Of a DNA stretch of 45,917 nucleotides, positions 1-45,917 are shown one piece after another (position 1 is the stretch's first letter; every line of letters begins with the position of its first letter). The position numbers were made by a program, and so were the translations under genes. Source of the DNA: Escherichia phage 2725-N35; sequence record MN840485.1, one strand, 5' to 3'. A model generated the notes under the pieces. The model did no database searches and was not told the DNA's origin. It worked only from the letters and a program-made list of their open reading frames with translations.

Positions 1-983
1 CATCTTTAGCTAGGGCTAACTTCGAAAGAGTAATCTCCATCCATTACATCAATGAGGATGTAACCATCTTCTGTGATGACCAACTCATATTCGTAACCAG
101 TTTTGCGTGATTCGTAGAGAATTTTCCAGTGTAGATAGTAGCCATTTTATTTCTCTCTTTGTGTTTCGTTTCGATGGAGTAACTATACCCCATCTTTTAA
201 AATCGCCTTTAGCAATTCGTGCTATTTTGAAATCATTTCTTTGAATGCTGCAAGAAAACCCTCACGTCCGTAGGCGACTGCCGAGAAACCGCCTGATTCC
301 ATTACACTTTTCAGGAATGCCTTCTGTTCTTCGCTGACTGGACTTGCTTGAGTTTTGCCAGCCCTCTTTAGCTCTATAGCTCCGAAAGGATACTTACCTC
401 GAAGTGATTCAGGAATAAGAAACATACAGTCTGATACGCCTTTTAGAAGCCCCTTAGCCTGGTCTTTTCTTGCTTGACCAATGGTTTTCTTTCCCTCATT
501 CACGCAATGGAAAAATACCATATCTGGGTAGTTATACTTAACCCAATCAGAGCAAAAGATTTGTTCGTCATCCTCTTTAGGGCATGACTTAACCGGACCA
601 GGGTAAAACTCAATGTAATCTTCTTTATCTGTAATCTTCATAATAATTCTCCAAAATTCTTAAACGCTATCACGTCCTTTCCTTTTGCATTCCGGCGATG
701 CGTAACCTGAACTGGCGCACGGAACTTATCTACGTTAGTCATAATCATTCTGGCATTTTTAAGCCTGCCAATTCGCGCCGCTTCCGTGCGATTCTCAATA
801 TGAGCTAAGCAAAAGTTCTTCCAGAGCACACTGCAAACTCGATGGTCTGATTCTGGATTAAAGAACTCCCAAGCGTTAAATCTCTCTCCGTTATGAGCCA
901 TTATATTGTACTTAACTACAATGCCTGTCTGATTCTTACTTAACCCAACTTGAAAATCATAAACACGAAGGTAATCACCACGA
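1..983. repeat. Terminal direct repeat, copy A (matches ~44935..45917); contains the 3' end of the helicase gene, the VRR-NUC gene, one promoter element and the 5' part of a small gene
   Basis: Window start and end are collinear and near-identical; ORF-track proteins at 222..641 and 45156..45575 are identical. Two 2-bp indels between copies: 'gtagaga' at ~115 vs 'gtaga' in copy B, and 'ctttag' at ~5 vs 'ctttgtag' in copy B. Confidence 0.9.
222..641 (-). CDS. VRR-NUC-like (PD-(D/E)XK superfamily) nuclease
   Basis: 139 aa with 'FHCVNEG...', 'GAIELKRAGK' and an E/K-containing core typical of VRR-NUC; start overlaps the helicase stop (ATGA). Confidence 0.6.
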   Translation of the reverse strand: MKITDKEDYIEFYPGPVKSCPKEDDEQIFCSDWVKYNYPDMVFFHCVNEGKKTIGQARKDQAKGLLKGVSDCMFLIPESLRGKYPFGAIELKRAGKTQASPVSEEQKAFLKSVMESGGFSAVAYGREGFLAAFKEMISK

Positions 984-2632
984 CGATACATTTTGCCAGT
1001 CAGGTTAGCATTTGGGTCTTTAAGCATCTCGCCGCATTCCCTGCAAACCTTTGCTGCTATGTCATTGCGAGCGCCACAACCCTTTTTAATTACCGATTTA
1101 GTTTGCGCGTCGGTAATGTCTTCGCAAATTGTGAACTGAAAGAAGTGATCGCACCTAACGCCATCAATCTTATTGCTACAGCGACGAGCGAATGGGGAAT
1201 TTTCATATCCACATTGCGGACACTGACGAACCTCATCGCCACCTTTTCTTGAGGATTTAAACTTCTCAGCCTGAATCTCTTCAATAATTGGGTCAAAGTA
1301 AAGCTCAGCCATATCATCAAGTGCGCCAGCAAAATCCAGCACAAGGTGATCTTCTTTATGAAAACCAGCATCAATATGAGATCTCTTAAGTTTGCGCATC
1401 CCCCTACCAAGAAGCTGAATCATAAGCGTTAGGCTGCCAATCTTGCGTAGTATGACGCTAGTATCCCACAGCGGCTGGTTTACGCCCGTAGTAAGACAAC
1501 CAATCTGGAATATTATTTTGTACTTACCTGTCTGGCAATCAGCTAGAATCTCCCTGCGCTTCCTCTCTCCCGTAGAGTCTGTGATGATGGCGTAAGGGTA
1601 TCCATCTGGTAGTGCCGCAGCAGCCTCATCACAATGGAGTTTGCCAGCGCATGTTACCAATGCAGCGTTACGAGTCTCGAGTATTTTCACAACAAAACCC
1701 ATTATCTTTTGGGTCATTGATTGGTTGTCGTGAATCTTTGCAGCCATTGCATCCATTTCTTTCTTGCTGAAGTCTTTAACGCCATCGCTTCCGTCTGGCG
1801 CAAACTCACTAAGGTCATAACCCAGGTCACCAACTTCACCATAAACAGTAGGAACAACGAAGCCCAAATCAACCAGATAATTTGTTGGCACCTGAATCAC
1901 TGTTTTGCGCCAGAATCCACGGATGTTTGGGTTGCTAACGACGATATGATCGTTGTTACGATACGGGCTGCCAGTAAGACCGAATATACGAAGCTCACGC
2001 CCGTACTTCTCACGACAACGACGTTTCATCTCGGTGATAATTAGCGTGTACTGCGCACGACCAGTACCAAGCAATCCTGTGTTTACGCCATCCTTAAAAA
2101 CCATATCGCCTTTCTTTGTGCTCATTTGCTCAAATGTTTCTTCATTCTCTTCAGCCTCCACGATATCCATGTGATCGACCATGTGACACTCATCTATAGC
2201 GATAACTGCCGGAACATAGTCACCAAGCCCCTTAAACAAGCCGTTGGCTGCCGTACCCTCACTGGCCACTATAGTTGGGTGGTAAACTGATTTGACGTTA
2301 AGGCCAGCGCAATAGACGCTATTACGTATGCCGAAATTACGAAGCTCTTCTGAGTTCTGGCTGATAATCTCTGACTGGCGAGAGAGAACCATATAGGGAA
2401 GCCCAAGCTGCTCCATGCGCTTACCAATCATGGCAAGAATGATTGTCTTACCCGCAGATACTGAAAGGTCTGCGATAAATGGTGCCTCGTACTTGCCAAT
2501 AGCCTTTCCGATTGCATCAAATGTCACGCACTGGAATTCGTAAGGGGTTATCTCTCCAAACTGATAGTCTTTCTGAATCTGTTTGATTCTTTCTTTATCG
2601 AAATTTGCAACCAGCTTCTCGATAGGCAACAT
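638..2632 (-). CDS. SF2 DNA helicase with C-terminal Cys4 zinc ribbon
   Basis: 664 aa; Walker A-like 'SVSAGKT', DExH-like 'IDECH', and C-terminal CPQCG...C..C / CRECG cysteine pairs. Confidence 0.8.
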   Translation of the reverse strand: MLPIEKLVANFDKERIKQIQKDYQFGEITPYEFQCVTFDAIGKAIGKYEAPFIADLSVSAGKTIILAMIGKRMEQLGLPYMVLSRQSEIISQNSEELRNFGIRNSVYCAGLNVKSVYHPTIVASEGTAANGLFKGLGDYVPAVIAIDECHMVDHMDIVEAEENEETFEQMSTKKGDMVFKDGVNTGLLGTGRAQYTLIITEMKRRCREKYGRELRIFGLTGSPYRNNDHIVVSNPNIRGFWRKTVIQVPTNYLVDLGFVVPTVYGEVGDLGYDLSEFAPDGSDGVKDFSKKEMDAMAAKIHDNQSMTQKIMGFVVKILETRNAALVTCAGKLHCDEAAAALPDGYPYAIITDSTGERKRREILADCQTGKYKIIFQIGCLTTGVNQPLWDTSVILRKIGSLTLMIQLLGRGMRKLKRSHIDAGFHKEDHLVLDFAGALDDMAELYFDPIIEEIQAEKFKSSRKGGDEVRQCPQCGYENSPFARRCSNKIDGVRCDHFFQFTICEDITDAQTKSVIKKGCGARNDIAAKVCRECGEMLKDPNANLTGKMYRRGDYLRVYDFQVGLSKNQTGIVVKYNIMAHNGERFNAWEFFNPESDHRVCSVLWKNFCLAHIENRTEAARIGRLKNARMIMTNVDKFRAPVQVTHRRNAKGKDVIAFKNFGELL

Positions 2633-2678
2633 ATCTAAATTCCTATAAAAATTGTCTTGTAGCGTTTAATTGAGTACA

Positions 2679-2722
2679 ATAATACCATCAAATCAGGATG
2701 ACTTTTAACAAAAAATGCTATT
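2679..2722 (-). promoter_or_regulatory. P-box promoter-like element upstream of the helicase operon
   Basis: Minus-strand reading: AATAGCATTTTTTGTTAAAAG, ~21 nt, TATTAT; then ~45 nt leader to the helicase ATG. Confidence 0.5.
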
Positions 2723-2733
2723 GAGGTAATGAA

Positions 2734-3213
2734 ATGAATACAGTCGACAAGCGAACAATTAACGGCAATAACGGAACCATCCGCACCGAAGACAAAAAGC
2801 AACGTAAACGACCTTCAGGCTACTATGTTTTAAAAGATGAAGTAAGAGCCGGGCTACGCGCGCGGCTAGAGATAGTTCTTGATTTCTTCGGCACAAAGGC
2901 GAATATCGCAAAGCAGTTAAAGGTAACACCACAGGCTGTAGAAGAATGGTTTAAGCGCGGTATGATTTCTGCGCGTGGGGCTCAACTTTCTCACAACTAC
3001 TATAAGCGAAATGGAGAAGGTTTTCGCGCTACATTCTGCCGACCAGACCTGCAATTCGACGGCAACGGGAGACCGCTGACACTTCGGTGCAAAAAGCGCC
3101 ATATGCTGCGAGTCGTCACTGAGGCTGAATTAGCCACTAAGCCAGAGTGTCGTTCATGGCGCAAGATAAAATTAGAGAACCAAAAGAAGAAAGAGCAAAA
3201 CAGCACGATTTGA
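2734..3213 (+). CDS. DNA-binding protein with Cro/YdaS-like helix-turn-helix; putative transcriptional regulator
   Basis: 159 aa; 'TKANIAKQLKVTPQAVEEWFKRGMIS' HTH; SD GAGGT upstream of ATG. Confidence 0.55.
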   Translation: MNTVDKRTINGNNGTIRTEDKKQRKRPSGYYVLKDEVRAGLRARLEIVLDFFGTKANIAKQLKVTPQAVEEWFKRGMISARGAQLSHNYYKRNGEGFRATFCRPDLQFDGNGRPLTLRCKKRHMLRVVTEAELATKPECRSWRKIKLENQKKKEQNSTI

Positions 3214-3268
3214 TAAACAATGGCACTTTGCATTATGTATAGTGCCTTTATTGTTTATGGAGGTAATT

Positions 3269-4195
3269 ATGAGTCACAATGATAAGAACGAAGTGATAGC
3301 CAAGATGAAAGGGATGTGGAGTGAGTTCTACTCATCGCATCTTGGATGGACAAAGGAGAATCTCAGCAAGAAACATGGTCCGTGCCCTTACTGCTTTGGC
3401 AAGGATAGGTTTCGCTTCACTGATGAGTTAGGTCAAGAAAAGGGAAATGGCGCAGCAATATGCAACCAGTGTGGAAATGATTCTGGTGTTGGTTGGGTAA
3501 TGAAGTGTTCTGGAATGAGTTATAGTGAAACAATAGATACGCTTGGTGATTGGCTGAATCTCGTTCCAGTAGAGGTTATATCAAAAGCAAACAAAAGAGC
3601 TTCAAGAACATCACCATACAAAATGGGCGCTCAGATTGATCACGAAAGATGCTTAGAGATAATGGAAAGGACGGAAAGAGTAGAATCAACTCCTCTCAGT
3701 ACATACGAGGGTATCTATAGCGAGTTCGGTTTTGATGTTGGCAGGACGAAATCAGGTGAATTAATCCACGCAGTTCCGTGCTTTATGGCTTATAGCGACG
3801 GTATATCAGAAGAAATGTGTAATGTAATGTTTATCAATGAAGAGGGAGATGTTAGTTATGCTGCAAAAGATTATACTCGCCAGTCTATTTCTGTTATTGG
3901 TTCCCTTAAGGATGATGAGTACGCTTATCTGGTCGATAATCTCATTGACGGCTATCATGTTCACATTGCTACTGGCAACCGCTGCGTGCTTGTTTGCCAC
4001 TCCAGTTACAACATGGAAATGGTTGCTTACGCGCTTAGAAACTACAAGTTACGCATCGCTTGTACTCGCAGCGATTTTGATTTACTCGCCGTTGCTGACG
4101 ATCGCAATCTTGATGTTGTAATGCCAAATAATGATAACCACTTCAAATCAGGAATAAGAAAGCGAATATACAAGGCGAGCGAATTACTAGACTAA
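3269..4195 (+). CDS. DNA primase (zinc-finger type), putative
   Basis: 'CPYCFGKDRF...CNQCGN' zinc-binding motif; sits next to the helicase; start moved to the ATG preceded by GGAGG (track ORF begins at GTG 3242). Confidence 0.55.
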   Translation: MSHNDKNEVIAKMKGMWSEFYSSHLGWTKENLSKKHGPCPYCFGKDRFRFTDELGQEKGNGAAICNQCGNDSGVGWVMKCSGMSYSETIDTLGDWLNLVPVEVISKANKRASRTSPYKMGAQIDHERCLEIMERTERVESTPLSTYEGIYSEFGFDVGRTKSGELIHAVPCFMAYSDGISEEMCNVMFINEEGDVSYAAKDYTRQSISVIGSLKDDEYAYLVDNLIDGYHVHIATGNRCVLVCHSSYNMEMVAYALRNYKLRIACTRSDFDLLAVADDRNLDVVMPNNDNHFKSGIRKRIYKASELLD

Positions 4196-4216
4196 CCTCC
4201 TTCGGGAGGTTTTTTT
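4196..4216 (+). terminator. Rho-independent terminator after primase
   Basis: CCTCC-ttcg-GGAGG hairpin followed by T7. Confidence 0.8.
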
Positions 4217-4221
4217 ATGAC

Positions 4222-4258
4222 TCAAAGATGCTACAATCCACTTTAGCAATTCGTGCTA
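4222..4258 (+). promoter_or_regulatory. Extended -10 promoter (TGcTACAAT) followed by an inverted copy of the P-box upstream motif; candidate operator
   Basis: gaTGCTACAATccacTTTAGCAATTCGTGCTATTTT immediately upstream of the tail fibre gene. Confidence 0.45.
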
Positions 4259-4282
4259 TTTTACAAATGGAGACTCTACACA

Positions 4283-6817
4283 ATGGCAATTTATGACTCA
4301 GGAACAGCTTCTCTAGCAGCAAGTGGTGAGGTGACTGGCGTCGGGACAACATGGAAAGCACCTCTTACACTGATTCGTGTAGGTGCAACCATTGTATTTA
4401 AAACTGAACCAGTACAGATTTACACCATCTCAGAAATTATCAGCGATACGCAGATTAATGTTTACAACCCTAACTCCGAAACTGTTCCTGCTGGAACTGG
4501 TTACGCTATCCTTGCGCATGATGGAATTACCGTTCAGGGATTGGCTCAGGATGTAGCAGAGACTTTGCGTTACTACCAGTCTAAGGAGACATCCATCGAA
4601 GGATTGCTGCAATTTATTGGTCAAGACACTTTCGACTGGCCTCGCTTCGAGCAACTTGCAAATCAATCAATCACTGGAGCTGCGGAGGCGCTTGCTAGTC
4701 AGGTTACTGCCGCAGAGAGTGCTTCTACTGCTGTTAGCGCAAGAGACGCAACAACATCAGCGAGAGATGCTACTATTGAGGCAATTAATAGTGCTGGTGA
4801 TGCCAGCACGCTGGTTACTCTTGCTAATATTGGTATTGGTACATCATCACAGCCGCAGATAAGTGCGATTGACTGGCAGACGTATGATTTCAAGTCAATG
4901 TCTAGCTTCACAACGACGCTGCAGTCGATGAGTAACTTGCCTGCGGGGTTGAATTTTGCAACCGGAAACCCATACCTTTTTGTTACAGTTCTTTCATCAA
5001 GGTCTGTCGCAGGGACTGTATCGGCAAAGGTTCAAGTTTCAACAAGGGCCGATAACGACAACAACACAAGAGTTTACGACGTTTACGTAAATGGGAACGT
5101 CGGGTCTAGGGTTTTTTCTGTAAGAGAGAATCTTAGCCTTGTTTCAAACTCAACAACACCCGACGGAGGTGTAACTGCGGATAGAATCAGAAGCAGACTT
5201 GATATTTACTCAAAGAGTGAGACTGATGGGGTTGTAGATGCTCTTAAAAACTTCAAGCTTAATAATGTTTCATCAGTAGTTAGAAGTGTGGAATCAAAAC
5301 TTGGTGACTTTGTTAACGTCATGGATTTTGGTGCTACAAACAATGGTACTTTAGTTCCTCTTTCATCTAAATTTTCGACAATTGAGGATGCGCGGTTTGT
5401 TTATCCATTTGCATCAAACCTTAACGAGTCACTTGACGCAGTTGCGCTTCAGGCGGCGGTTAATACTGGCAAAACGGTATACATACCAAAAGGATTTATG
5501 TTTATTAACAGGACTGTAAGGATTGGCAACAGCACGAGAATTATTGGTGAGGGGACAAGCCAAATAAACAGGGCGCAAACATTTATATCAGTTGATGGAA
5601 ACATAAACCTGTTTGCCTTGGTTCAGGGTGGTGCTGAAAACATAAGAATGTATCAAGTATTTATTGAAGGACTTTACATTTTTTATAACCCAGGAACTAC
5701 ACCGACCGTAGCATCAGGGAATGATCAAAAGATAGCATTCAACTTTGTTTCTAATGTTGGTTCTGCCACAGGGCTAGAAAATTCATGTATCAAAGATTGC
5801 ACAGTTCATGGAGCGTGGGGTTGCTACCTTGATACTACTGGAACGTATCAAACAAAGCTGCAAAACGTATGGGCAAGGAACTGTAGAAACGGATTCATTA
5901 AAGCCACAGGAACTACAATTCTTATGGAAACATGCTACGCATCTGGCTGCGTTTCTCCTTTTGAATTTGGTTCAGTAATGAGTGTGACAATGATTAACTG
6001 CGCAATGGATGCCAGTAATATATCATCAACATCAGGTTCTTATGGTGGGGCTGGAATTAACTTCATCAACAGCCATAGTGTAAACATACTAGGGATGGAC
6101 GTCGAAGGTAACATTATTGACACCAACGGTTCTCAGGATTGCTGCCTTATTAGGTTTAATAACTCAAATGGCAGGATTTCTGGACTAACGTCATGGAAAA
6201 ACGAGGTTAGAACAACTGGAGGTGGTTCTGGTGGTGTGGTTTCATATATCAAGGCCTCTGGAACGTCTCACGTCATTATTGACTCGTCTGAGGATGATAT
6301 TAATGATAGCGGATTGGTTTACACTGGAACTGGTGGATATCCAGTAACAATTTACGCGGCAGATTCGGCGTCAAGGATTGATATTCTCAGCGGTAGGTTC
6401 CAGTCAGCTAAAGGGGGCTCCCCTTCGATATCGGTTGTTAGTCAGGGCAATGTGAACTGGTTTACTGAGCCTATGGGTGGTTCTATTGCTGGTGGTTATA
6501 AGCAGACATACTCATCAGAAGGATTGAGGACTAATGGTGTTTATACGGATAAAGGTTCAAAGGTGGTACAGGCAAGCGTTCCAACTGGGCTATTTGAATT
6601 ACCAAACTCACCAGGCTTGTACAAGGTTTGTACCTGGGTGGCTAATGCTGGAACAAACTATAGCGTCATAGCTGACGTTCTATTTGATGGAGCCACATCA
6701 TCAATTACAGTCACTAAGACGGCAGCATTTACAACACTGGATGTTAGTTCAAGGACTGTCAGTATAACTGCACGGGGTGCAGCCACTTACAAATGGACTT
6801 ACACTAAAATAGGTTAA
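4283..6817 (+). CDS. Tail fibre/tailspike protein with predicted right-handed beta-helix (possible depolymerase) domain
   Basis: 845 aa; N-terminus 'MAIYDSGTASLAASGEVTGVGTTWKAPLTLIRVGATIVFK' as in T1/T5-type fibre anchors; central region rich in N/G/T/S beta-helix-like repeats. Confidence 0.65.
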   Translation: MAIYDSGTASLAASGEVTGVGTTWKAPLTLIRVGATIVFKTEPVQIYTISEIISDTQINVYNPNSETVPAGTGYAILAHDGITVQGLAQDVAETLRYYQSKETSIEGLLQFIGQDTFDWPRFEQLANQSITGAAEALASQVTAAESASTAVSARDATTSARDATIEAINSAGDASTLVTLANIGIGTSSQPQISAIDWQTYDFKSMSSFTTTLQSMSNLPAGLNFATGNPYLFVTVLSSRSVAGTVSAKVQVSTRADNDNNTRVYDVYVNGNVGSRVFSVRENLSLVSNSTTPDGGVTADRIRSRLDIYSKSETDGVVDALKNFKLNNVSSVVRSVESKLGDFVNVMDFGATNNGTLVPLSSKFSTIEDARFVYPFASNLNESLDAVALQAAVNTGKTVYIPKGFMFINRTVRIGNSTRIIGEGTSQINRAQTFISVDGNINLFALVQGGAENIRMYQVFIEGLYIFYNPGTTPTVASGNDQKIAFNFVSNVGSATGLENSCIKDCTVHGAWGCYLDTTGTYQTKLQNVWARNCRNGFIKATGTTILMETCYASGCVSPFEFGSVMSVTMINCAMDASNISSTSGSYGGAGINFINSHSVNILGMDVEGNIIDTNGSQDCCLIRFNNSNGRISGLTSWKNEVRTTGGGSGGVVSYIKASGTSHVIIDSSEDDINDSGLVYTGTGGYPVTIYAADSASRIDILSGRFQSAKGGSPSISVVSQGNVNWFTEPMGGSIAGGYKQTYSSEGLRTNGVYTDKGSKVVQASVPTGLFELPNSPGLYKVCTWVANAGTNYSVIADVLFDGATSSITVTKTAAFTTLDVSSRTVSITARGAATYKWTYTKIG

Positions 6818-6818
6818 T

Positions 6819-6849
6819 AAAAAAAGGCCCCGAAAGGGGCCTTATCTTT
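6819..6849. terminator. Bidirectional rho-independent terminator between convergent tail fibre and SSB genes
   Basis: A7-GGCCCC-gaaa-GGGGCC-TTATCTTT. Confidence 0.8.
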
Positions 6850-6853
6850 GATA

Positions 6854-7282
6854 TCAGAACGGGATATCGTCGTTGAATTGCTGTTGTTGCTGTGGCTGTG
6901 GCTGATATTGCTGTTGTGGCTGCCGCTGTGGCTGTTGCTTAGGCTTCTGCTGGCTGCCAGAATCCACGCGCTGACTAAACTCAAGTCGTGGGTTGTTCAT
7001 GTTAATCGTTACGTAAGTCTTACCATCTTTATCTCGAACATCAACAGCCAGACTTTCGGCGCTAACGCTAACAACCTTACCCTCTTGAAATGCTTCATTG
7101 TACCAATCTAGCATTGACTCTTTCGCGAAGAAGACTGCGCGATAGTTACTATACTGAGTCTGACCATCTTTATCTTTGTATCGCTCACTCAAATCAACCG
7201 CAAACATTTTCCAGGTACCATTAGCATTCTGACCTTCTTTAGTGAATGGAGCGCGGCGAATCTGACCAGTAATTACGTGCAT
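6854..7282 (-). CDS. ssb: Single-stranded DNA-binding protein
   Basis: OB-fold-like N-terminus, Q/P-rich linker, C-terminal acidic tail ending DDIPF. Confidence 0.9.
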   Translation of the reverse strand: MHVITGQIRRAPFTKEGQNANGTWKMFAVDLSERYKDKDGQTQYSNYRAVFFAKESMLDWYNEAFQEGKVVSVSAESLAVDVRDKDGKTYVTINMNNPRLEFSQRVDSGSQQKPKQQPQRQPQQQYQPQPQQQQQFNDDIPF

Positions 7283-7323
7283 GTTTTTATCTCTCTATTG
7301 TTGGGGCCTAAGCCCCTCTTAAA

Positions 7324-7974
7324 CTAGAATGTGTCGATTTGTTGTGATTCTACTTCATTCTTTTCTTTATCACTACTTTTTTCTGCAACTTTCTTAGGCG
7401 TTGCTGGGTTAAAGCCAGTCATTGCATTAGCTTCGATTTCTGCTTTTCGCTCGATAATGTGAGGTTCAAAAACCTTCCATCCTGCCGCATCAAGTGATTG
7501 TTTGGCCTCTTTCCATACATTACGAAGCTCATCAAGAGTGTTGCATTTCTCGAGTTCTCGCTTGAAATCCTTAACACCCTTAGCGGCGAGATTGCCATCA
7601 TCATCTGCCTGGCTGAGACCTAAAGCTGCCGTTATTCCGTAACGTCGAGCATATGTTAATGCTGAGCCGTAACCTTGAGCATCATTCTTGCTGATTGGTA
7701 CAATCATTAAGAAGCTAACCCACTCTCCAGATTCTGCGTGAAATAGCTTTGTCTCAACCTTTAGTAGTCCATTTGCTTCGCTATCAATTACGCTCTGAAA
7801 CATCACAAGACCACATTCTTCAAGGCCAGGCTCTACAGCGGCAAGAACATCATCAAGAGTACTATATCTGTTCTTGAGGTGAGAGTTCTGCTTCGACTTT
7901 TCAGCCTTCGCAAATAGCGATTTAGCGGTGTGCAGCGCGTTTAAAATTGATTTGCATGATTCTGAAATTTGCAT
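7324..7974 (-). CDS. erf: Erf-family single-strand annealing recombinase
   Basis: 'GSALTYARRYGITAALGL...DDDGN' matches the P22 Erf signature 'SSYARKY..NGLFGIDD'. Confidence 0.8.
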   Translation of the reverse strand: MQISESCKSILNALHTAKSLFAKAEKSKQNSHLKNRYSTLDDVLAAVEPGLEECGLVMFQSVIDSEANGLLKVETKLFHAESGEWVSFLMIVPISKNDAQGYGSALTYARRYGITAALGLSQADDDGNLAAKGVKDFKRELEKCNTLDELRNVWKEAKQSLDAAGWKVFEPHIIERKAEIEANAMTGFNPATPKKVAEKSSDKEKNEVESQQIDTF

Positions 7975-8003
7975 CTTTAACCTCGTTCGTTGTTGATGGG
8001 ATA

Positions 8004-8050
8004 ATCATACCCCGCATTTTAATTTTGTCTTTAGCAATTCGTGCTGTTTA
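8004..8050 (-). promoter_or_regulatory. P-box promoter upstream of the erf-ssb operon
   Basis: AACAGCACGAATTGCTAAAG, 22 nt, TATGAT; 29-nt leader to erf ATG. Confidence 0.6.
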
Positions 8051-9867: not shown

Positions 9868-9935
9868 TAGCACGAATAGCTAAAGACATTCCGCACTGAC
9901 GGTTGTATTATTACTACATCGAAACGAAACAACTT
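9868..9935 (+). promoter_or_regulatory. P-box promoter for the lipoprotein/receptor-binding protein operon
   Basis: AATAGCACGAATAGCTAAAG, 23 nt, TATTAT, TACTACATCGAAACGAAAC leader. Confidence 0.55.
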
Positions 9936-14100: not shown

Positions 14101-14615
14101 TATTCCTGATATGCTCCACCATTAACAGACAGGTCAATTGCGTACTCACAAGTTGTTCCGTTCAGGTCTCCATTGCTTTCTTGCTTAACCAGTCTAGGCC
14201 AATATAGCTTTACACGAATCGCTGATAGCTGAGTATTGTTAACCGCAATGATGTACGGGGTATCGTTCTTGATTTCTCTGGATGCCTGAATCTCTGAGTT
14301 AGCACCGTCAAGCCCGGCGATATAATCCTGATACTGCGTGCCGGCACGGAACTCAGCGCGAACACCTTCGTAGTTGTAGCTACCATCCTGGTTTTGCACC
14401 GGAACGTCGGCAAGGTATAAATCTTTCATTGAGAAATTGGGGTCAACCTCACCATCAGCAACCGCCAAAAGAACCTTAACCTTGTTTAGTGAAATGAGGT
14501 TATCTTCCTGCTCCACTGGTTGATGCTGCTTCTGGCTACCACCTTTAGCACCATAAATCTTAATATCTTCAGCCATATCACAAAGCCTCATGTTTGTTTT
14601 GATCATTTGTGCCAT
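11190..14615 (-). CDS. Tail tip/central fibre protein, lambda gpJ-like (host specificity protein)
   Basis: 1141 aa; conserved gpJ region 'YPLTALVYVEFGSD...IQVPTNYDTETRTYSGTWNGLFK..AWSNNPAWVLYDL'. Confidence 0.9.
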   Translation of the reverse strand: MAQMIKTNMRLCDMAEDIKIYGAKGGSQKQHQPVEQEDNLISLNKVKVLLAVADGEVDPNFSMKDLYLADVPVQNQDGSYNYEGVRAEFRAGTQYQDYIAGLDGANSEIQASREIKNDTPYIIAVNNTQLSAIRVKLYWPRLVKQESNGDLNGTTCEYAIDLSVNGGAYQEYTRGVANGKTTTGYDRSIRVNLPAEFDSALVRIRKITPDSTSSTLVNGMQITTYQEVIDAKFRYPLTALVYVEFGSDLFPNGIPTISIKKRWKLIQVPTNYDTETRTYSGTWNGLFKMAWSNNPAWVLYDLVTNRRYGLDQRELGVEIDKWGLYEAAQFCDQMVPDGKGGLEPRYLCDMVVQNKVEAYTLIRDICSIFRGLTFYDGEKIGIVVDKPRNPSYIFTNDNVVNGLFSRTFASDKSLYTTANVQFDDVENNYQQDVEPVFELEATRRFGFNPVDLTAIGCTRRSEANRRGRWLLKTNLRSETISFTTGLEGMIPMIGEVIAVNDAAWSSNYQLNLSGRIESVQGLQVFTPFKVDAAPGDRILLNKPDGSPEARTIASVSEDGRTINLNTAFSFLAQPDTVFAIDKDNLALQQYVVTGIQKADSDGSDSFQYTITAVEYDPNKYDEIDYGVNIVDRPTSIVEPDRLSPPENLTVSSYSKVVQGLSVETMVIGWDKAPYAKTYNVQWRKENGNWINVPRTASTEVDIEGIYAGIYDVRVRSVSDTENVSAWSGIVTVSLTGKIGRPSAPTVITASTDEVFGIRVKWGFPEGSGDTAYTELQQVPDNGDGTYNPDNASLLTLLPYPAYEYWHTPIQPGKVIWYRARLIDRIGNTSDWSAFARGMSTDDANIINDYIKVDIEGSDGFKYLEQNAIQKNQDIQNQAESILENSLANDADVRRMTKENGKRKAEYVQAVNLIADETQARVEALTQLKAQIDDEVVGQITTIETALATETEARATADTALSARVGNNEAALNQKLDAFSNATSTGVQYGISLGLKYNGQTYSSGMSMELVGTGGNVRSQFIFDANRFAISNGIGSGSGQWQLPFVVENGNVIIQSAVIGDGSITNAKIGNIISSNDYVAGSQGWAILKSGASEFNNTTVRGNLYANNGNFAFNGTNNTVQINNNGITVNLPNGGRVVVGVW

Positions 14616-14623
14616 TCTACACT

Positions 14624-21091: not shown

Positions 21092-21109
21092 TTCTTTAAT
21101 CTCTCATTT

Positions 21110-21170
21110 CGTTTCGATGAGTTAACTATACAGGAAGATTGGATTAACGCTTTAGCAAAAAGTGCTATGC
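21110..21170 (-). promoter_or_regulatory. P-box promoter for the moron gene
   Basis: ATAGCACTTTTTGCTAAAG, 22 nt, TATAGTTAACTCATCGAAACGAAATGAG. Confidence 0.6.
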
Positions 21171-24785: not shown

Positions 24786-24877
24786 TCTTTATTGTTCCTT
24801 TTCAGTTAGGTGTCTACGAGCTTATTATACAGTAGGGCGACCGCAAATCAATAGATAAGTTAGCTGCCCATAATGTG

Positions 24878-25567: not shown

Positions 25568-25624
25568 GATTTATCTCCTTTTCTAAGTGAGAATTGAATA
25601 TAACATAGGCGTAATTTGATTACA

Positions 25625-28989: not shown

Positions 28990-29045
28990 GTGAAGTAACT
29001 ATACGCCATCCGTGGCTCTAGCGTTTAGCAATTCGTGCTATTTAA
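28990..29045 (-). promoter_or_regulatory. P-box promoter for the 28592..28966 moron
   Basis: AAATAGCACGAATTGCTAAAC, 22 nt, TATAGTTACTTCACACAAAC; the TerL stop codon (TAG) lies within the motif. Confidence 0.6.
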
Positions 29046-31114: not shown

Positions 31115-31182
31115 ATCGCCACCTCGTTAGTTTGTTGGGCCCATTATCTCATTGATTGGGCCTCTTCTTTTAACAATAATTG

Positions 31183-31689
31183 CTATAACTTACTAATAAC
31201 AGACTCCAGCGCTTCCTTCATGCTATCAACGTCGTTAGCTGTGGAGTTGTTGCTAATGGTAATCTCCTGCGGCTTATCAATCCCTAGCTCTTTACCAACG
31301 ATTGTGGAGTTGATGATGCCTGCAACGCCAAGCTGATACTTCTGCTCGTAAATTACGTTATCAATAAATTCCATCACATCAGAGTATCCAGCCTCTGTAC
31401 GCCAGCGTGCGAATCTATTGATGTTAACACCCATGAAGAGCGCCAGACCTGTTAATGTGAATACTCGAGGCTTGTGCACTAAACTCTCGCTAACCACGCC
31501 CTGGAATGCCGCCGTCTCAATGGCTTTGATTGCCTCATTCTCAGCCCATGAAAAGTATCTCACTGCAAAGTCAAATACCTCCTCTGGAGTGCACTTGCGG
31601 TTGATTGCCACCATAGCAATATCGCCATACTTCTTGTTATAAAGCGCCTTGAAATTTCCATCACCCATCTTTAATGCTGCTTTGCTCAT
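31183..31689 (-). CDS. Terminase small subunit, putative
   Basis: 168 aa directly upstream of HNH/TerL; first gene after a strong promoter. Confidence 0.6.
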   Translation of the reverse strand: MSKAALKMGDGNFKALYNKKYGDIAMVAINRKCTPEEVFDFAVRYFSWAENEAIKAIETAAFQGVVSESLVHKPRVFTLTGLALFMGVNINRFARWRTEAGYSDVMEFIDNVIYEQKYQLGVAGIINSTIVGKELGIDKPQEITISNNSTANDVDSMKEALESVISKL

Positions 31690-31699
31690 TTAATCCTCC

Positions 31700-31730
31700 T
31701 TTGTTGAGGTCAGATTATACCATATTGCAG
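31700..31730 (-). promoter_or_regulatory. sigma70-like extended -10 promoter (TGgTATAAT) for the packaging/late operon
   Basis: Minus reading: tgcaataTGGTATAATctgacctcaacAAAGGAGGattaaATG. Confidence 0.55.
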
Positions 31731-32854: not shown

Positions 32855-32915
32855 GATAAGGTAATTATATGCCATCCGTGGCACCTGCGTTTAGCAATTA
32901 GTGCTATTTATAGAA
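32855..32915 (-). promoter_or_regulatory. P-box promoter
   Basis: AAATAGCACTAATTGCTAAAC, 22 nt, TATAATTACCTTATCAACAC. Confidence 0.6.
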
Positions 32916-33429: not shown

Positions 33430-33495
33430 CTCATTGTTTCGATGGGGTAACTATAACAAATTACCCCAATTCTGCTTTAGTAATTCGTGCTACTT
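33430..33495 (-). promoter_or_regulatory. P-box promoter
   Basis: AGTAGCACGAATTACTAAAG, 22 nt, TATAGTTACCCCATCGAAACAATGAGAG. Confidence 0.6.
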
Positions 33496-33964: not shown

Positions 33965-34025
33965 GGTGTGAACTAACTATAACAAAACCAGCCGGAGCGG
34001 GTTTAGCAATTCGTGCTATTTGCCA
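33965..34025 (-). promoter_or_regulatory. P-box promoter
   Basis: AAATAGCACGAATTGCTAAAC, 22 nt, TATAGTTAGTTCACACCAAACGAGAGG. Confidence 0.6.
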
Positions 34026-34409: not shown

Positions 34410-34475
34410 TCATGTGGTTGATGCTGGGGATTATACCAGTCAGTATGAATCCCCTTTTATCAATTCGTGCGATCT
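34410..34475 (-). promoter_or_regulatory. P-box promoter (variant upstream box) with perfect TATAAT
   Basis: GATCGCACGAATTGATAAAAG, 22 nt, TATAAT; long (~130 nt) leader. Confidence 0.55.
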
Positions 34476-34944: not shown

Positions 34945-35005
34945 GATGTGGTAATCATATCCGATTACCCGATACATTGTTTAGCAATTCGTGCTATTTA
35001 GCACT
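34945..35005 (-). promoter_or_regulatory. P-box promoter
   Basis: AAATAGCACGAATTGCTAAAC, 22 nt, TATGATTACCACATCGACAACAAAGAGG. Confidence 0.6.
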
Positions 35006-35324: not shown

Positions 35325-35375
35325 GTAATTATGCCATCCATGACATTACCGCGTTAGGCAAAAAGTGCTATTCAC
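35325..35375 (-). promoter_or_regulatory. P-box promoter (AAAAG-type upstream box)
   Basis: GAATAGCACTTTTTGCCTAAC, 22 nt, CATAATTACCACACCAACAG. Confidence 0.55.
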
Positions 35376-37704: not shown

Positions 37705-37866
37705 TGCTATTACCATCTGAGATAAATTATTTCGATCTTGAGGTCGTAAGTGCCTATAGCGGAAAGGGCTGGCCTTGTGGAGATTGGTTCCGAGAGGACT
37801 TGCTAGAGAGTCACGAGATTATGCTTAAGGCGATAGAAAAAGCACGAAATAGCACGAATTGCTAAA
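37705..37866 (+). CDS. Hypothetical small protein (~53 aa)
   Basis: ORF MLLPSEINYFDLEV...; stop codon is the TAA of the next P-box (TTGCTAA); coordinates approximate. Confidence 0.35.
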
Positions 37867-37905
37867 TCCATACGTGGCTTTTCCTGTATATTAACCTCAT
37901 CGAAA
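37850..37905 (+). promoter_or_regulatory. P-box promoter
   Basis: AAATAGCACGAATTGCTAAAT, 22 nt, TATATTAACCTCATCGAAACGGGAG. Confidence 0.6.
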
Positions 37906-42154: not shown

Positions 42155-42215
42155 ATGTGGTAATTATGCCGCATTTCTACGGCATGCGTTAGGCAAAAAG
42201 TGCTATTAACTAAAC
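42155..42215 (-). promoter_or_regulatory. P-box promoter for the lysis cassette
   Basis: TAATAGCACTTTTTGCCTAAC, 22 nt, CATAATTACCACATAGAAACGAG. Confidence 0.55.
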
Positions 42216-43336
42216 ATTTCCGGGCGGCAAGTAAATCGTCCAATCTCACCAAACTCAGGACTATAAATTATCACCGAAGCCTGTCGGTAAGAGCGATAAC
42301 CTCCGTTAGCACTGTACGCATCTTTCGCTCCAAGCTGGCCGTGTGATTCATCAATACCCAGATTTCCTTCCGTAATAGTTTGATGGTGATAGTGGCCTGA
42401 ATGGGTGTAAACATACTCTGATTCACCAAATGCTTTGCGATGGTCACGAGCCAGTGCTGATAGTCGGGTATCAGGCTTTTTGAGTTCGTGCCCATGGCAG
42501 TAACCAAGCAGTGTCTTCCCAAATTGCGTTACGTGAAGCGCAGCGGGGGACGTATCAACATTAACTCGAGGCTCATCCATATAGAAAGCTGCCATTGCAG
42601 CACGAAGCCAAATCATACCTGAGAGATCGTGGTTACCTGGAATAATCTGAACCTCAACCTCGGCGTGCTTATCAAGCATACGGCTAATTGCTCGACGTGT
42701 CGATCGCACTGCTACGTAAACAAGTTTGTGATAACGGCTATCTTGATCAAGAACATGACGACTGGTTGGTGTTACCGCTTCCATTCCGTCAGAGTGAAGG
42801 AAGTCACCCCCAATCAGCAATACAGCTTTCTTGGAGTTGGGGGCCTTTGCAACCGCGTAATCAAAGTAATCATTAAGAACTCTCTCAGCGATTTCAGTAC
42901 TATAGTTCTCACCACACTCAGCATGATGAGCCATTGCTCCAATGTGGAGGTCGAACACGGGGTAAAGGCTTAAAGTATCTTCCCATAAACCAACCCTTAA
43001 AGCTTTAGCTTTCTCACGCGGCAACTCATCAGTTAGGGCCTGAATTGCCTGAAGCATCATCTCTTCTTGCTTCTCCTTGTCGATATCTGATTTAACCCAC
43101 TGTTGCTTAATCTCGCCATCAGCACCAATTAAGCTGGATACGCCTTTAACTGCATAGCCCTGAGGGATTAAGTTGCTTACATCGCGACCATGCCCTTCGC
43201 CTTGTTTAGCTAATTTACTGCGACGCAATTCAACGTTGCGAATGTTCATTCCGTACTTCTCTGCGATTGCCTTGTTGGTCATGCCATTTGCTAACTCTTC
43301 GCGCAATTGTTCGTTGGTGATTTTTGCGGTTGCCAT
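42206..43336 (-). CDS. HTH domain fused to a calcineurin-like metallophosphoesterase
   Basis: N-terminal 'LANGMTNKAIAEKYGMNIRNVELRRSKL' (LuxR/sigma-r4-like HTH); phosphoesterase motifs DLH, GGDFLH, GNHD, HGH, HSGHYHH. Confidence 0.7.
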   Translation of the reverse strand: MATAKITNEQLREELANGMTNKAIAEKYGMNIRNVELRRSKLAKQGEGHGRDVSNLIPQGYAVKGVSSLIGADGEIKQQWVKSDIDKEKQEEMMLQAIQALTDELPREKAKALRVGLWEDTLSLYPVFDLHIGAMAHHAECGENYSTEIAERVLNDYFDYAVAKAPNSKKAVLLIGGDFLHSDGMEAVTPTSRHVLDQDSRYHKLVYVAVRSTRRAISRMLDKHAEVEVQIIPGNHDLSGMIWLRAAMAAFYMDEPRVNVDTSPAALHVTQFGKTLLGYCHGHELKKPDTRLSALARDHRKAFGESEYVYTHSGHYHHQTITEGNLGIDESHGQLGAKDAYSANGGYRSYRQASVIIYSPEFGEIGRFTCRPEMFS

Positions 43337-43419: not shown

Positions 43420-43671
43420 TCATTCAACTTCTTTCAACCAGTAGTCTATCACTTCCGCACTAATTGCTAATTTCTGATCAAGGTCAGTCATGCAAAGGTT
43501 TCCGCATGCTGGGGAGTAGTAAATCTGTACCCACTTTCCTTCTTTAGTTTTTGCATTCACATCCACATAGTCAGGAGGAAACCAGTCAGAGATAGGTATC
43601 GCTCTAAACTTCGCTCCACTTTGCCCATATACTAAATCGTAATGCTCTGGCTGAAAATCTAAACCCAACAT
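43420..43671 (-). CDS. Hypothetical protein
   Basis: 83 aa ORF. Confidence 0.45.
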   Translation of the reverse strand: MLGLDFQPEHYDLVYGQSGAKFRAIPISDWFPPDYVDVNAKTKEGKWVQIYYSPACGNLCMTDLDQKLAISAEVIDYWLKEVE

Positions 43672-44044: not shown

Positions 44045-44115
44045 CTCTTAATCCTATGTGTTGTTGATGTGCTTAATATAATCCATACGTGGATTTGAGT
44101 TTTAACAAAAAGTGC
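44045..44115 (-). promoter_or_regulatory. P-box promoter (AAAAG-type)
   Basis: GAATAGCACTTTTTGTTAAAAC, 22 nt, TATATTAAGCACATCAACAACAC. Confidence 0.55.
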
Positions 44116-44882: not shown

Positions 44883-45079
44883 TCTGATACCTCATCAAAT
44901 TTTTCGCCAAATTCGTTTTTAACAGTTTCTAAATCATCTTTGTAGCTAGGGCTAACTTCGAAAGAGTAATCTCCATCCATTACATCAATGAGGATGTAAC
45001 CATCTTCTGTGATGACCAACTCATATTCGTAACCAGTTTTGCGTGATTCGTAGAATTTTCCAGTGTAGATAGTAGCCAT
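44879..45079 (-). CDS. Hypothetical small protein
   Basis: Start set at ATG (MATIYTGKFY...) 30 nt downstream of the P-box -10; track ORF extends to 45127. Confidence 0.45.
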   Translation of the reverse strand: MATIYTGKFYESRKTGYEYELVITEDGYILIDVMDGDYSFEVSPSYKDDLETVKNEFGEKFDEVSE

Positions 45080-45116
45080 TTTATTTCTCTCTTTGTGTTT
45101 CGTTTCGATGGAGTAA

Positions 45117-45162
45117 CTATACCCCATCTTTTAAAATCGCCTTTAGCAATTCGTGCTATTTT
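45117..45162 (-). promoter_or_regulatory. P-box promoter (archetype; duplicated at ~182..228)
   Basis: AAAATAGCACGAATTGCTAAAGG, 22 nt, TATAGTTACTCCATCGAAACGAAAC; VRR-NUC stop TAG lies inside the box. Confidence 0.6.
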
Positions 45163-45575
45163 GAAATCATTTCTTTGAATGCTGCAAGAAAACCCTCACG
45201 TCCGTAGGCGACTGCCGAGAAACCGCCTGATTCCATTACACTTTTCAGGAATGCCTTCTGTTCTTCGCTGACTGGACTTGCTTGAGTTTTGCCAGCCCTC
45301 TTTAGCTCTATAGCTCCGAAAGGATACTTACCTCGAAGTGATTCAGGAATAAGAAACATACAGTCTGATACGCCTTTTAGAAGCCCCTTAGCCTGGTCTT
45401 TTCTTGCTTGACCAATGGTTTTCTTTCCCTCATTCACGCAATGGAAAAATACCATATCTGGGTAGTTATACTTAACCCAATCAGAGCAAAAGATTTGTTC
45501 GTCATCCTCTTTAGGGCATGACTTAACCGGACCAGGGTAAAACTCAATGTAATCTTCTTTATCTGTAATCTTCAT
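45156..45575 (-). CDS. VRR-NUC-like nuclease (duplicate of 222..641 within the terminal repeat)
   Basis: Identical 139-aa translation. Confidence 0.6.
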   Translation of the reverse strand: MKITDKEDYIEFYPGPVKSCPKEDDEQIFCSDWVKYNYPDMVFFHCVNEGKKTIGQARKDQAKGLLKGVSDCMFLIPESLRGKYPFGAIELKRAGKTQASPVSEEQKAFLKSVMESGGFSAVAYGREGFLAAFKEMISK

Positions 45576-45917
45576 AATAATTCTCCAAAATTCTTAAACG
45601 CTATCACGTCCTTTCCTTTTGCATTCCGGCGATGCGTAACCTGAACTGGCGCACGGAACTTATCTACGTTAGTCATAATCATTCTGGCATTTTTAAGCCT
45701 GCCAATTCGCGCCGCTTCCGTGCGATTCTCAATATGAGCTAAGCAAAAGTTCTTCCAGAGCACACTGCAAACTCGATGGTCTGATTCTGGATTAAAGAAC
45801 TCCCAAGCGTTAAATCTCTCTCCGTTATGAGCCATTATATTGTACTTAACTACAATGCCTGTCTGATTCTTACTTAACCCAACTTGAAAATCATAAACAC
45901 GAAGGTAATCACCACGA
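45572..45917 (-). CDS. Helicase gene, 3' portion (duplicate, truncated by the window end)
   Basis: Translation identical to the C-terminus of the 638..2632 product. Confidence 0.6.
   Translation of the reverse strand, partial: RGDYLRVYDFQVGLSKNQTGIVVKYNIMAHNGERFNAWEFFNPESDHRVCSVLWKNFCLAHIENRTEAARIGRLKNARMIMTNVDKFRAPVQVTHRRNAKGKDVIAFKNFGELL

Follow-up and report, generated by a model that had tools for sequence, protein, structure and literature searches.

Phages related to T1, a classic coliphage, belong to the Drexlerviridae, a group that is abundant both in collections assembled for phage therapy and among the contaminants of laboratories. Genome papers published between 2004 and 2024 report few sigma70 promoters in these phages, together with an unexplained repeat of 21 nucleotides (nt). 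In phage TLS, this repeat was described as direct repeats with the consensus aaATAGCACnnnTTGnTAAAA, also found in T1, Rtp and Rogue1, and its function was left open between a stoperator, an enhancer site and an UP element (PMC11447400). We analyzed the 45,917-nt sequence of Escherichia phage 2725-N35 (MN840485.1; "the window" means this whole stretch), a T1-like coliphage (Drexlerviridae, Braunvirinae), and we focus on one copy of the repeat that lies in reverse orientation over the predicted start site of the lateral tail fibre gene (positions 4240-4259, minus strand). Our preferred reading, which we hold tentatively and rate slightly below an even chance, is that the repeat, or box, is an oriented site of the marbox type for a monomeric activator, most likely host MarA, SoxS or Rob, with the constitutive Rob as the default, and that the inverted copy represses. 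Functional statements in this report are drawn from sequence, geometry and conservation. The match of the box to the motif, its geometry, its orientation and its conservation are direct observations, from which the binding factor, the repression and its relief are inferred.

The marbox, at which the monomeric AraC-family activators and stress regulators MarA, SoxS and Rob of E. coli bind, as does RamA, has been defined as 5'-gcannwwntgnnaaa-3', a non-palindromic site with a specific orientation (PMC12052159). In class II marbox promoters, a forward marbox occupies the position of the -35 element, its centre falling within -36 to -55. The micF promoter, for example, reads GCACTGAATGTCAAA, 20 nt, TAGAAT (oligonucleotide sequence from PMC13335620; the spacing was counted in this analysis). 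Most copies of the phage box resemble micF and other class II promoters in having an oriented motif (GCAC-N7-YAAA or GCAnnWWnTGnnAAA) that points forward and lies 20 nt from the -10, with the functional -35 absent or occluded; in addition, the bases contacted by Rob fall at the same promoter coordinates. The phage sites differ in that they are candidate sites by sequence, belong to a virulent genome that has some 20 of them in 45 kb, and come much nearer to the consensus than most chromosomal marboxes do. The copy at 4240-4259 differs further, as it is inverted and lies on a start site.

Repression through a marbox is also known. MarA, SoxS and Rob repress the pbpG gene through a marbox within the spacer between its -35 and -10 elements. 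The rob, purA and hdeA genes likewise have a core promoter overlapped by a marbox, through which they are repressed. By analogy, the inverted boxes within the spacers of major-head promoters in T1, TLS and a Klebsiella phage, and the tail-fibre box at +1, may repress promoters that would be active alone. Unlike the pbpG site, however, the tail-fibre site is downstream of the -10 and not between the hexamers, and the sites at the tail-tip J genes point forward. A different parallel is provided by cI and Cro of phage lambda, for which one type of site activates from about -42 (OR2 at PRM) and represses when it lies over a core promoter (PR); in our phage, too, a gene for a Cro-like helix-turn-helix (HTH) protein adjoins a site. 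The lambda operators are pseudo-symmetric sites for dimers, such that orientation is irrelevant, whereas the phage motif is asymmetric and its activating copies are strictly oriented.

The direct repeats of TLS are the same element as the box studied here, with the same consensus, about 20 copies, an intergenic location and a common direction with transcription. However, the description of these repeats (PMC11447400) does not include a fixed 20-nt link to a -10, an identity with the marbox or inverted copies, and the TLS genome has no inverted copy at its tail fibre gene. In the literature that we searched, the box sequence appears in no paper, we found no transcriptome or start-site map of any member of the Drexlerviridae, and nothing links the marbox, MarA or Rob to T1-like phages. 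Thus, the repeat itself is already known; the inverted copy overlapping a start site and the marbox identity appear to be new.

The tail fibre gene (4283..6817, plus strand; PHROG tail fibre families, for example phrog_24092, E 4.7e-124) follows the primase gene (3269..4195, plus strand). A terminator scan places an intrinsic terminator (AACCTCCTTCGGGAGGTT plus a T-run) at 4194-4217, directly after the primase gene. Next is an extended -10, TGcTACAAT (4229-4237; TG at 4229-4230 and TACAAT at 4232-4237), with no -35 element (GTTTTT is found at the position 17 nt away). From this -10, the start site would be near 4244, which is the first base of a 15-nt palindromic core, TAGCAATTCGTGCTA (4244-4258), within the sequence TTTAGCAATTCGTGCTATTTT (4242-4262). 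When read on the minus strand, the same DNA is a 20-nt marbox-type site, ATAGCACGAATTGCTAAAGT (4240-4259), that contains the 15-mer GCACGAATTGCTAAA (4242-4256) and extends from about -4 to +16, so that it spans the predicted +1 and overlaps the initiation region of a promoter with its own extended -10. The gap from the extended -10 to the box core is 6 nt, and another 24 nt lie between the core and the start codon (ATG, 4283-4285), which is preceded by a Shine-Dalgarno sequence (GGAG, 4269-4272). An earlier note on this DNA, made from the sequence alone, had described an extended -10 followed by the box in the opposite orientation about 25 nt before the ATG, and the sequence is as described. 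Its suggestion that this copy occupies the position of an operator is plausible, with the box over the start region of a conserved extended -10 promoter.

Read in reverse complement, the focal box is identical to the repeated consensus aaaTAGCACGAATTGCTAaa, an element that is co-directional with the downstream gene wherever else it occurs between genes. The exact inverted copy covers 4242-4258, or about -2 to +15 of the promoter. The reverse complement of positions 4241-4261, AAATAGCACGAATTGCTAAAG, fits the 21-nt direct repeat of the Drexlerviridae. The rule for these repeats is that they are co-directional with transcription and lie about 76 nt before a start codon. Canonical copies of the box follow this rule, and the focal copy does not; nor is it in a class II position, as it is inverted and located at -4 to +16.

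The canonical copies define a class of promoter. In brief, a box, either the 15-mer GCACGAATTGCTAAA or the T-type variant GCACTTTTTGYTAAA, stands 20 nt (rarely 19 or 21 nt) before a -10 resembling TATAGT; there is no -35, and an A/C-rich leader, a Shine-Dalgarno sequence and an ATG come after the -10. About 19 promoters in the window have a box pointing toward the gene and ending 20 nt before the -10 hexamer, and the same class is present in T1, TLS and a Klebsiella phage. The earlier note had placed the box elsewhere at about -40 to -55, in agreement with the -49 to -35 that we find for canonical copies. The inverted repeat TAGCA-N5-TGCTA, with at most one mismatch, occurs 19 times in the window, compared with 2.0 expected, and none of 100 shuffled sequences reaches this number. 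Thirteen copies of a marbox followed by N20 and nAnnnT are found when 0.09 would be expected. A typical example (34954-34994, minus strand) consists of GCACGAATTGCTAAA, 20 nt, TATGAT, the leader CATCGACAAC, a Shine-Dalgarno sequence and an ATG.

The match of this box to the marbox is exact. The 15-mer GCACGAATTGCTAAA agrees with GCAnnWWnTGnnAAA at 15 of 15 positions, as do the focal site and most canonical sites, and exact matches to this pattern number 17 in the window (1.10 +/- 1.14 in shuffled sequences). With the 20-mer AYnGCACnnWnnRYYAAAYn and at most one mismatch, there are 18 occurrences as against 0.97 expected. Particular variants of the phage box come close to the two natural marboxes that have been studied best, matching the mar site at 13 of 15 positions and the micF site at 13 of 15. 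Canonical copies also have class II geometry, that is, a forward marbox at the -35 position and 20 nt (19 to 21) to the -10, equal to micF. In the structure of Rob with RNA polymerase on micF, solved by cryo-electron microscopy, Rob reads -47G, -45A, -38G, -37T and the pairs at -35 and -34 (PMC9178005). A logo built from 50 promoters, taken from the window, T1 and TLS, shows G-47, A-45, G-38, Y-37, A-35 and A-34 in the same register. Positions that played no part in site selection also fit the asymmetric consensus: A1 in 47 of the 50 promoters, Y2 in 49, C7 in 44, Y14 in 47 and Y15 in 48.

A second copy of the box that runs against the gene downstream of it is found between the helicase gene (638..2632, minus strand) and the gene for the Cro-like HTH protein (2734..3213, plus strand; phrog_2856, "transcriptional regulator"). 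On the plus strand, this copy reads TTTAACAAAAAATGC (2704-2718), and its core is 13 nt before the HTH start codon at 2734. On the minus strand it is the marbox GCATTTTTTGTTAAA (2718-2704), which is followed after 19 nt by the -10 TATTAT (2684-2679) of a helicase promoter that is predicted to depend on the box (2679-2718). Therefore, the earlier statement that a variant about 12 nt upstream of the HTH gene doubles as the upstream box of the helicase promoter holds. The HTH gene has a sigma70 promoter, TTGTCT-17-TACAAT (2652-2680, plus strand), with a predicted start near 2687, which puts the box at about +18 to +32 of the transcript leader. The -10 hexamers of the two promoters overlap face to face (2675-2680 and 2679-2684). 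Equivalents of the sigma70 promoter are TTGAAT-17-TATAAT in T1, TTGACT-17-TATCAT in TLS and TTGTCA-16-TATAAT in Klebsiella phage RCIP0017, and the face-to-face arrangement is kept in four subfamilies, always with a strong sigma70 promoter for the HTH gene. The earlier note had viewed this copy as being in an operator position as well. It does lie between the HTH promoter and the ATG, but occlusion between opposed promoters is the better reading. In this case, the copy at 2704-2718 would be an ordinary activating box of the helicase promoter, and RNA polymerase recruited there would occupy the opposed, overlapping HTH promoter, such that the two promoters would exclude each other.

The HTH gene is also central to the alternative that survives best, although we consider it unlikely. 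It holds that a phage-encoded dimeric regulator, for example the Cro-like protein itself, binds TAGCA-N5-TGCTA in either orientation, activates from about -42 and represses from sites at or after a start, including that of its own gene. Most copies in the window do have perfect 5-bp arms (TAGCA and TGCTA) one helical turn apart. The HTH domain resembles P22 Cro (a weak Cro-type match, to 1rzs with E 0.003, was the only one in a sequence search of the PDB), and the protein is present in all Drexlerviridae examined, at 45-64% identity. Moreover, its gene is among the few non-structural genes whose sigma70 promoter is free of a box, and the box in its leader is kept in the four subfamilies mentioned above.

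However, the positions that are conserved fit a dyad poorly. The dyad partner of the invariant G-47 is the least conserved position of the box (C in 28, T in 19 and A in 3 of the 50 promoters), C-44 and T-40 are both conserved yet non-complementary, and the A-rich flanks are also non-complementary. For these reasons, we regard the box as asymmetric. In addition, all of the roughly 50 canonical copies in the three phages are strictly co-oriented with their genes, and the tail-fibre sites of phages 2004V and CY1 read TATCA..TGCTA with no compensating change in the other arm. The suggestion in the earlier note that an inverted-repeat core could be used by a dimer in either orientation is not supported. 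A factor made by the phage would also have the late promoters that carry a box fire first and then shut off, which is an odd order for structural genes.

Two proteins were proposed in the earlier note as candidates for binding the box. The product of 42206..43336 is a metallophosphoesterase/DNA-repair exonuclease. The predicted recognition helix of the other candidate, the HTH protein, reads TPQAVEEW in the window, SNQTVQGW in T1, NLKTVWGW in TLS and SIQVVQQW in a Klebsiella phage, while the boxes in these phages are the same. Because the box is invariant while this helix varies, we favor a host factor that is conserved across Enterobacterales. Consistent with a factor from the host, a search of all six-frame segments with profiles and phmmer for a homologue of MarA, SoxS or Rob, using query sequences entered by hand, returned only noise (best E 0.76), and no member of the family is among the 25 listed of the 51 families matched in a Pfam scan of 84 open reading frames (ORFs).

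The layout at the tail fibre gene is conserved among relatives. In the region 2000-8000, identity to Veterinaerplatzvirus T145P1 is about 92% and to SU57 about 88%. We aligned the tail-fibre leaders of 16 Drexlerviridae (TH30 was excluded). All 16 have a terminator at this position, with a stem of variable sequence, and the extended -10 is conserved, as T57, G58, T60, A61, A63 and T65 of the alignment are invariant. In 15 of the 16, the extended -10 is followed by the inverted box at a spacing of 6-7 nt, despite differing terminator and leader sequences. The common layout, which is shared by Braunvirinae, Nouzillyvirus, Tunavirus (T1/IME18) and LF82-11, is thus a terminator, the invariant TGnTAnAAT, 6-7 nt, TTA.CAATT.GTGCTA, a Shine-Dalgarno sequence and an ATG. 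A fixed distance from box to -10 and a single orientation amid diverged flanks point to selection on the promoter and box as a unit, and the arrangement goes beyond chance. In the paper on SU57, the terminator ahead of the homologous tail-spike gene was taken as grounds for doubting its transcription; the conserved extended -10 answers this doubt.

It is also conceivable, but improbable, that the inverted copy has no role in initiation at the tail fibre gene. It could be a leftover, a homology handle for the exchange of fibre modules, or a stoperator-like roadblock that backs up the terminator against read-through from the primase gene. The BLAST homology to Nouzillyvirus phages starts exactly at the intergenic region and extends into the fibre gene's conserved N-terminal portion, in contrast to the gene upstream, which is diverged. 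Mosaicism of the tail fibre gene is described in the SU57 paper, three lineages do without the box, and a stoperator-like role for the repeats was proposed by the TLS authors (PMC11447400). Against these explanations stand a distance of 6-7 nt and an orientation that stay fixed across lineages with diverged flanks, and analogous boxes at positions where they could affect only initiation, such as those inside a spacer between -35 and -10. Stoperators of the mycobacteriophage L5 type are asymmetric repressor sites that lie in transcribed DNA and stop elongation in one orientation. For canonical copies, the fixed spacing to the -10 argues for promoter elements rather than stoperators.

Analogous boxes are found at other late genes. 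The core structural genes have self-sufficient promoters directly after terminators, and the box lies over a number of these promoters. At the tail-tip J gene of the window (14596-14621, minus strand), the promoter element TGTAGAAT (14621-14614) runs into a forward marbox-type site, ATGGCACAAATGATCAAAAC (14615-14596), that covers about -8 to +12 and overlaps the start of the gene. The ATG at 14615 given by the ORF list falls within this box; J more likely begins with the ATG at 14606, which yields the N-terminus MIK... and agrees with T1 and TLS. In T1 and TLS, a forward box is located at +12 to +26, between TGTATAAT or TGTACAAT and the ATG of J. A forward box also follows the -10 of the terS promoter of T1, at -5 to +10. 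In T1, TLS and a Klebsiella phage, the promoter of the major head gene is of the type TTGACG, TTGAAC or TTGACC-16-TATTAT, and an inverted box fills its 16-nt spacer. The tail-fibre promoter, in the window and in many relatives, is the case with an inverted box at about +1. Orientation is thus not uniform among the overlapped late promoters, and what they share is an overlap with the core or initiation region. Overlap with promoters that appear to be independent of a factor is the logic of a steric operator, and this pattern supports the idea of an operator at the tail-fibre site.

Two further explanations concern the focal copy. The first is that a promoter on the minus strand has the inverted box as its upstream element and makes an antisense RNA to the end of the primase gene (3'), and we judge it to be very improbable. 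The box is in the activating orientation on that strand, but GTCATA/TCATAA stands at the required 19-21 nt and there is no TAnnnT; relatives have GGCATA, GGAATA or GCAATA there, with nothing conserved; and no leader, Shine-Dalgarno sequence or ORF follows, so that a transcript would enter the complement of the terminator stem. We rejected an antisense promoter, as neither the window nor any relative has a -10 at the required spacing. That the box acts as RNA, with the first 15 nt of the tail fibre mRNA forming a stabilizing 5'-terminal hairpin (UAGCA-AUUCG-UGCUA), is suggested by the coincidence of the predicted start with the first palindrome base, but is almost certainly wrong, because positions 4244-4300 fold no better than shuffled sequences (z +0.50), the minimum-energy structure does not contain the box hairpin, the arm mismatches in 2004V and CY1 are uncompensated, and T-type boxes at the equivalent T1 sites are poor palindromes.

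The preferred reading, in which the box is an oriented marbox-type site for a host activator, suggests the following mechanism. At canonical promoters, the factor bound to the forward box would replace the -35 contact and recruit RNA polymerase in the class II manner, as at micF. The tail-fibre promoter, with an extended -10 that follows closely on the terminator, would need no activator. A factor bound at 4240-4259 would instead block polymerase binding or promoter escape, and the box would then act as an operator that holds the promoter down as long as the factor is free. We infer that repression would ease when replicated phage genomes titrate the factor, or when the factor is lost after host shut-off. 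Such a reading would locate the missing promoters of these phages and explain the overlapping copies as operators of late genes.

A broader proposal, which is less likely than not, is that a single host factor serves the entire transcription programme of phages of the T1 family. Marboxes close to the consensus, arranged as at micF, would capture complexes of Rob, MarA or SoxS with RNA polymerase for about 20 early and middle promoters, and the same site, placed over self-sufficient sigma70 promoters of structural genes, would silence these until the factor is titrated or decays. The silenced set would comprise the tail fibre and tail-tip J genes, as well as the major head gene in T1, TLS and Klebsiella phages. 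Titration would be accomplished by hundreds of replicated genomes with about 20 sites each; as for decay, MarA and SoxS are short-lived substrates of Lon. If true, this proposal would describe an early-to-late switch that is driven by copy number or decay, has no phage-encoded regulator, and couples phage development and gene expression to the host regulon for multiple antibiotic resistance and oxidative stress. It would then bear on combining such phages with antibiotics, salicylate or bile salts, and the boxes would be a source of compact, strong, factor-dependent promoter and operator parts.

Several points weigh against the preferred reading or its extension. All start sites are placed from -10 positions only. 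Position 19 of the marbox (Y) agrees in only 14 of the 50 sites. In the absence of inducers, most Rob is reported to be sequestered and inactive. Cells that are not under stress contain little MarA and SoxS, yet T1-like phages grow very well under standard conditions. The perfect inverted arms of most boxes in this phage, and the gene for a Cro-like protein that adjoins a box and has a box-free promoter of its own, are as described above, and by analogy with lambda cI at PRM, a dimeric phage regulator acting from -42 is possible. The inverted box is absent from the tail-fibre promoters of Sf12, TLS and Klebsiella phage RCIP0017, which retain the terminator and a promoter of their own; because three lineages do without it, the box is dispensable. 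Finally, several late promoters of the window have no box, namely terS (TGgTATAAT), the gene for a 229-residue virion protein (TGtTATATT) and the major capsid gene (TTGATT-16-TATAAT), and a canonical promoter is found in front of one of the virion protein genes. Therefore, a split into early promoters switched on and late promoters switched off is not clean. Each of the three box-free cases is a terminator followed by a promoter and a structural gene on the minus strand (31700-31730 for terS, 25590-25620 for the 229-residue protein and 24820-24860 for the major capsid).

We also considered elements of the MotA or sigma54 type. The box bears a superficial likeness to the MotA box of phage T4 (TTGCTAAA compared with TTGCTTTA) and to sigma54 promoters (TAGCAC-N3-TTGC compared with TGGCAC-N5-TTGC). 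Both were rejected, as spacing and position do not fit. The MotA box is centered at -30 and about 12 nt from the -10, whereas the phage box is 20-22 nt away. Sigma54 promoters need GG, in the arrangement GG-N10-GC, and a spacer 2 nt longer than that of the phage box, lie at -24/-12 and have no TATAAT -10, while the phage element TAGCAC-N3-TTGC lacks the GG and lies 20 nt upstream of a sigma70-type -10.

The remaining canonical promoters are as follows. The primase gene has a forward box (GCACGATTTGATAAA), 20 nt and TATAGT at 3203-3243 (plus strand), overlapping the stop codon of the HTH gene. Others on the minus strand are found upstream of the Erf gene (8004-8044), of the gene for a 124-residue virion protein (28998-29038) and of an HNH endonuclease gene (31143-31183, with the -10 GATAAT), and one at 21125-21165 has the T-type box GCACTTTTTGCTAAA. 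At 37852-37892, on the plus strand, the box is co-oriented with a plus-strand gene. Further copies are at 9870, 36660 and 38652 on the plus strand, and at 32864-32904, 33450-33490, 33976-34016, 34430-34470, 35328-35368, 42163-42203 and 44075-44115 on the minus strand. The promoter at 182-222 (minus strand) has a duplicate at 45116-45156 and is thus counted twice, because an exact repeat of 866 nt is present at both ends of the window (118-983 and 45052-45917). A terminally redundant or circularly permuted assembly is the probable cause of this repeat. Positions 1-117 of the window do not match the stretch that precedes the other copy of the repeat.

Many canonical promoters have additional features near the -10. 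In the window (for example, at 170-182 and 21100-21125), T1 and a Klebsiella phage, the -10 of many such promoters is succeeded by a conserved leader rich in A and C, TTACyyCATCGAAACGAAAC, which might mark the start site or serve as an unstructured leader enhancing translation. An inverted repeat of variable sequence flanks many of the -10 elements, for example TGGGGTA-atttgtTATAGT-TACCCCA, as seen in the window at 33440-33475 and in T1 at 3553-3590, 4362-4400 and 4882-4915. Matches of at least 5 bp between a promoter's own arms are found in 12 of 20 promoters in T1, 10 of 21 in TLS, 7 of 17 in a Klebsiella phage and 5 of 20 in the window, compared with 14-19% when arms are swapped between promoters. 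The arms may form a hairpin that serves to terminate or process read-through RNA and that overlaps the promoter coming next. In the gap between the HTH and primase genes (3222-3257), a hairpin, GGCACT...AGTGCC, has the primase -10 in its loop and TTTATTGTTT after it; it looks like a terminator overlapping a promoter, and the annotation of T1 has a terminator at the equivalent place.

One box-like site lies outside these arrangements. The sequence CCGCACTAATTGCTAAT (43455-43471, plus strand) is within the minus-strand ORF 43420..43671, runs against the local gene direction and is located about 120 nt upstream of the start of the exonuclease gene.

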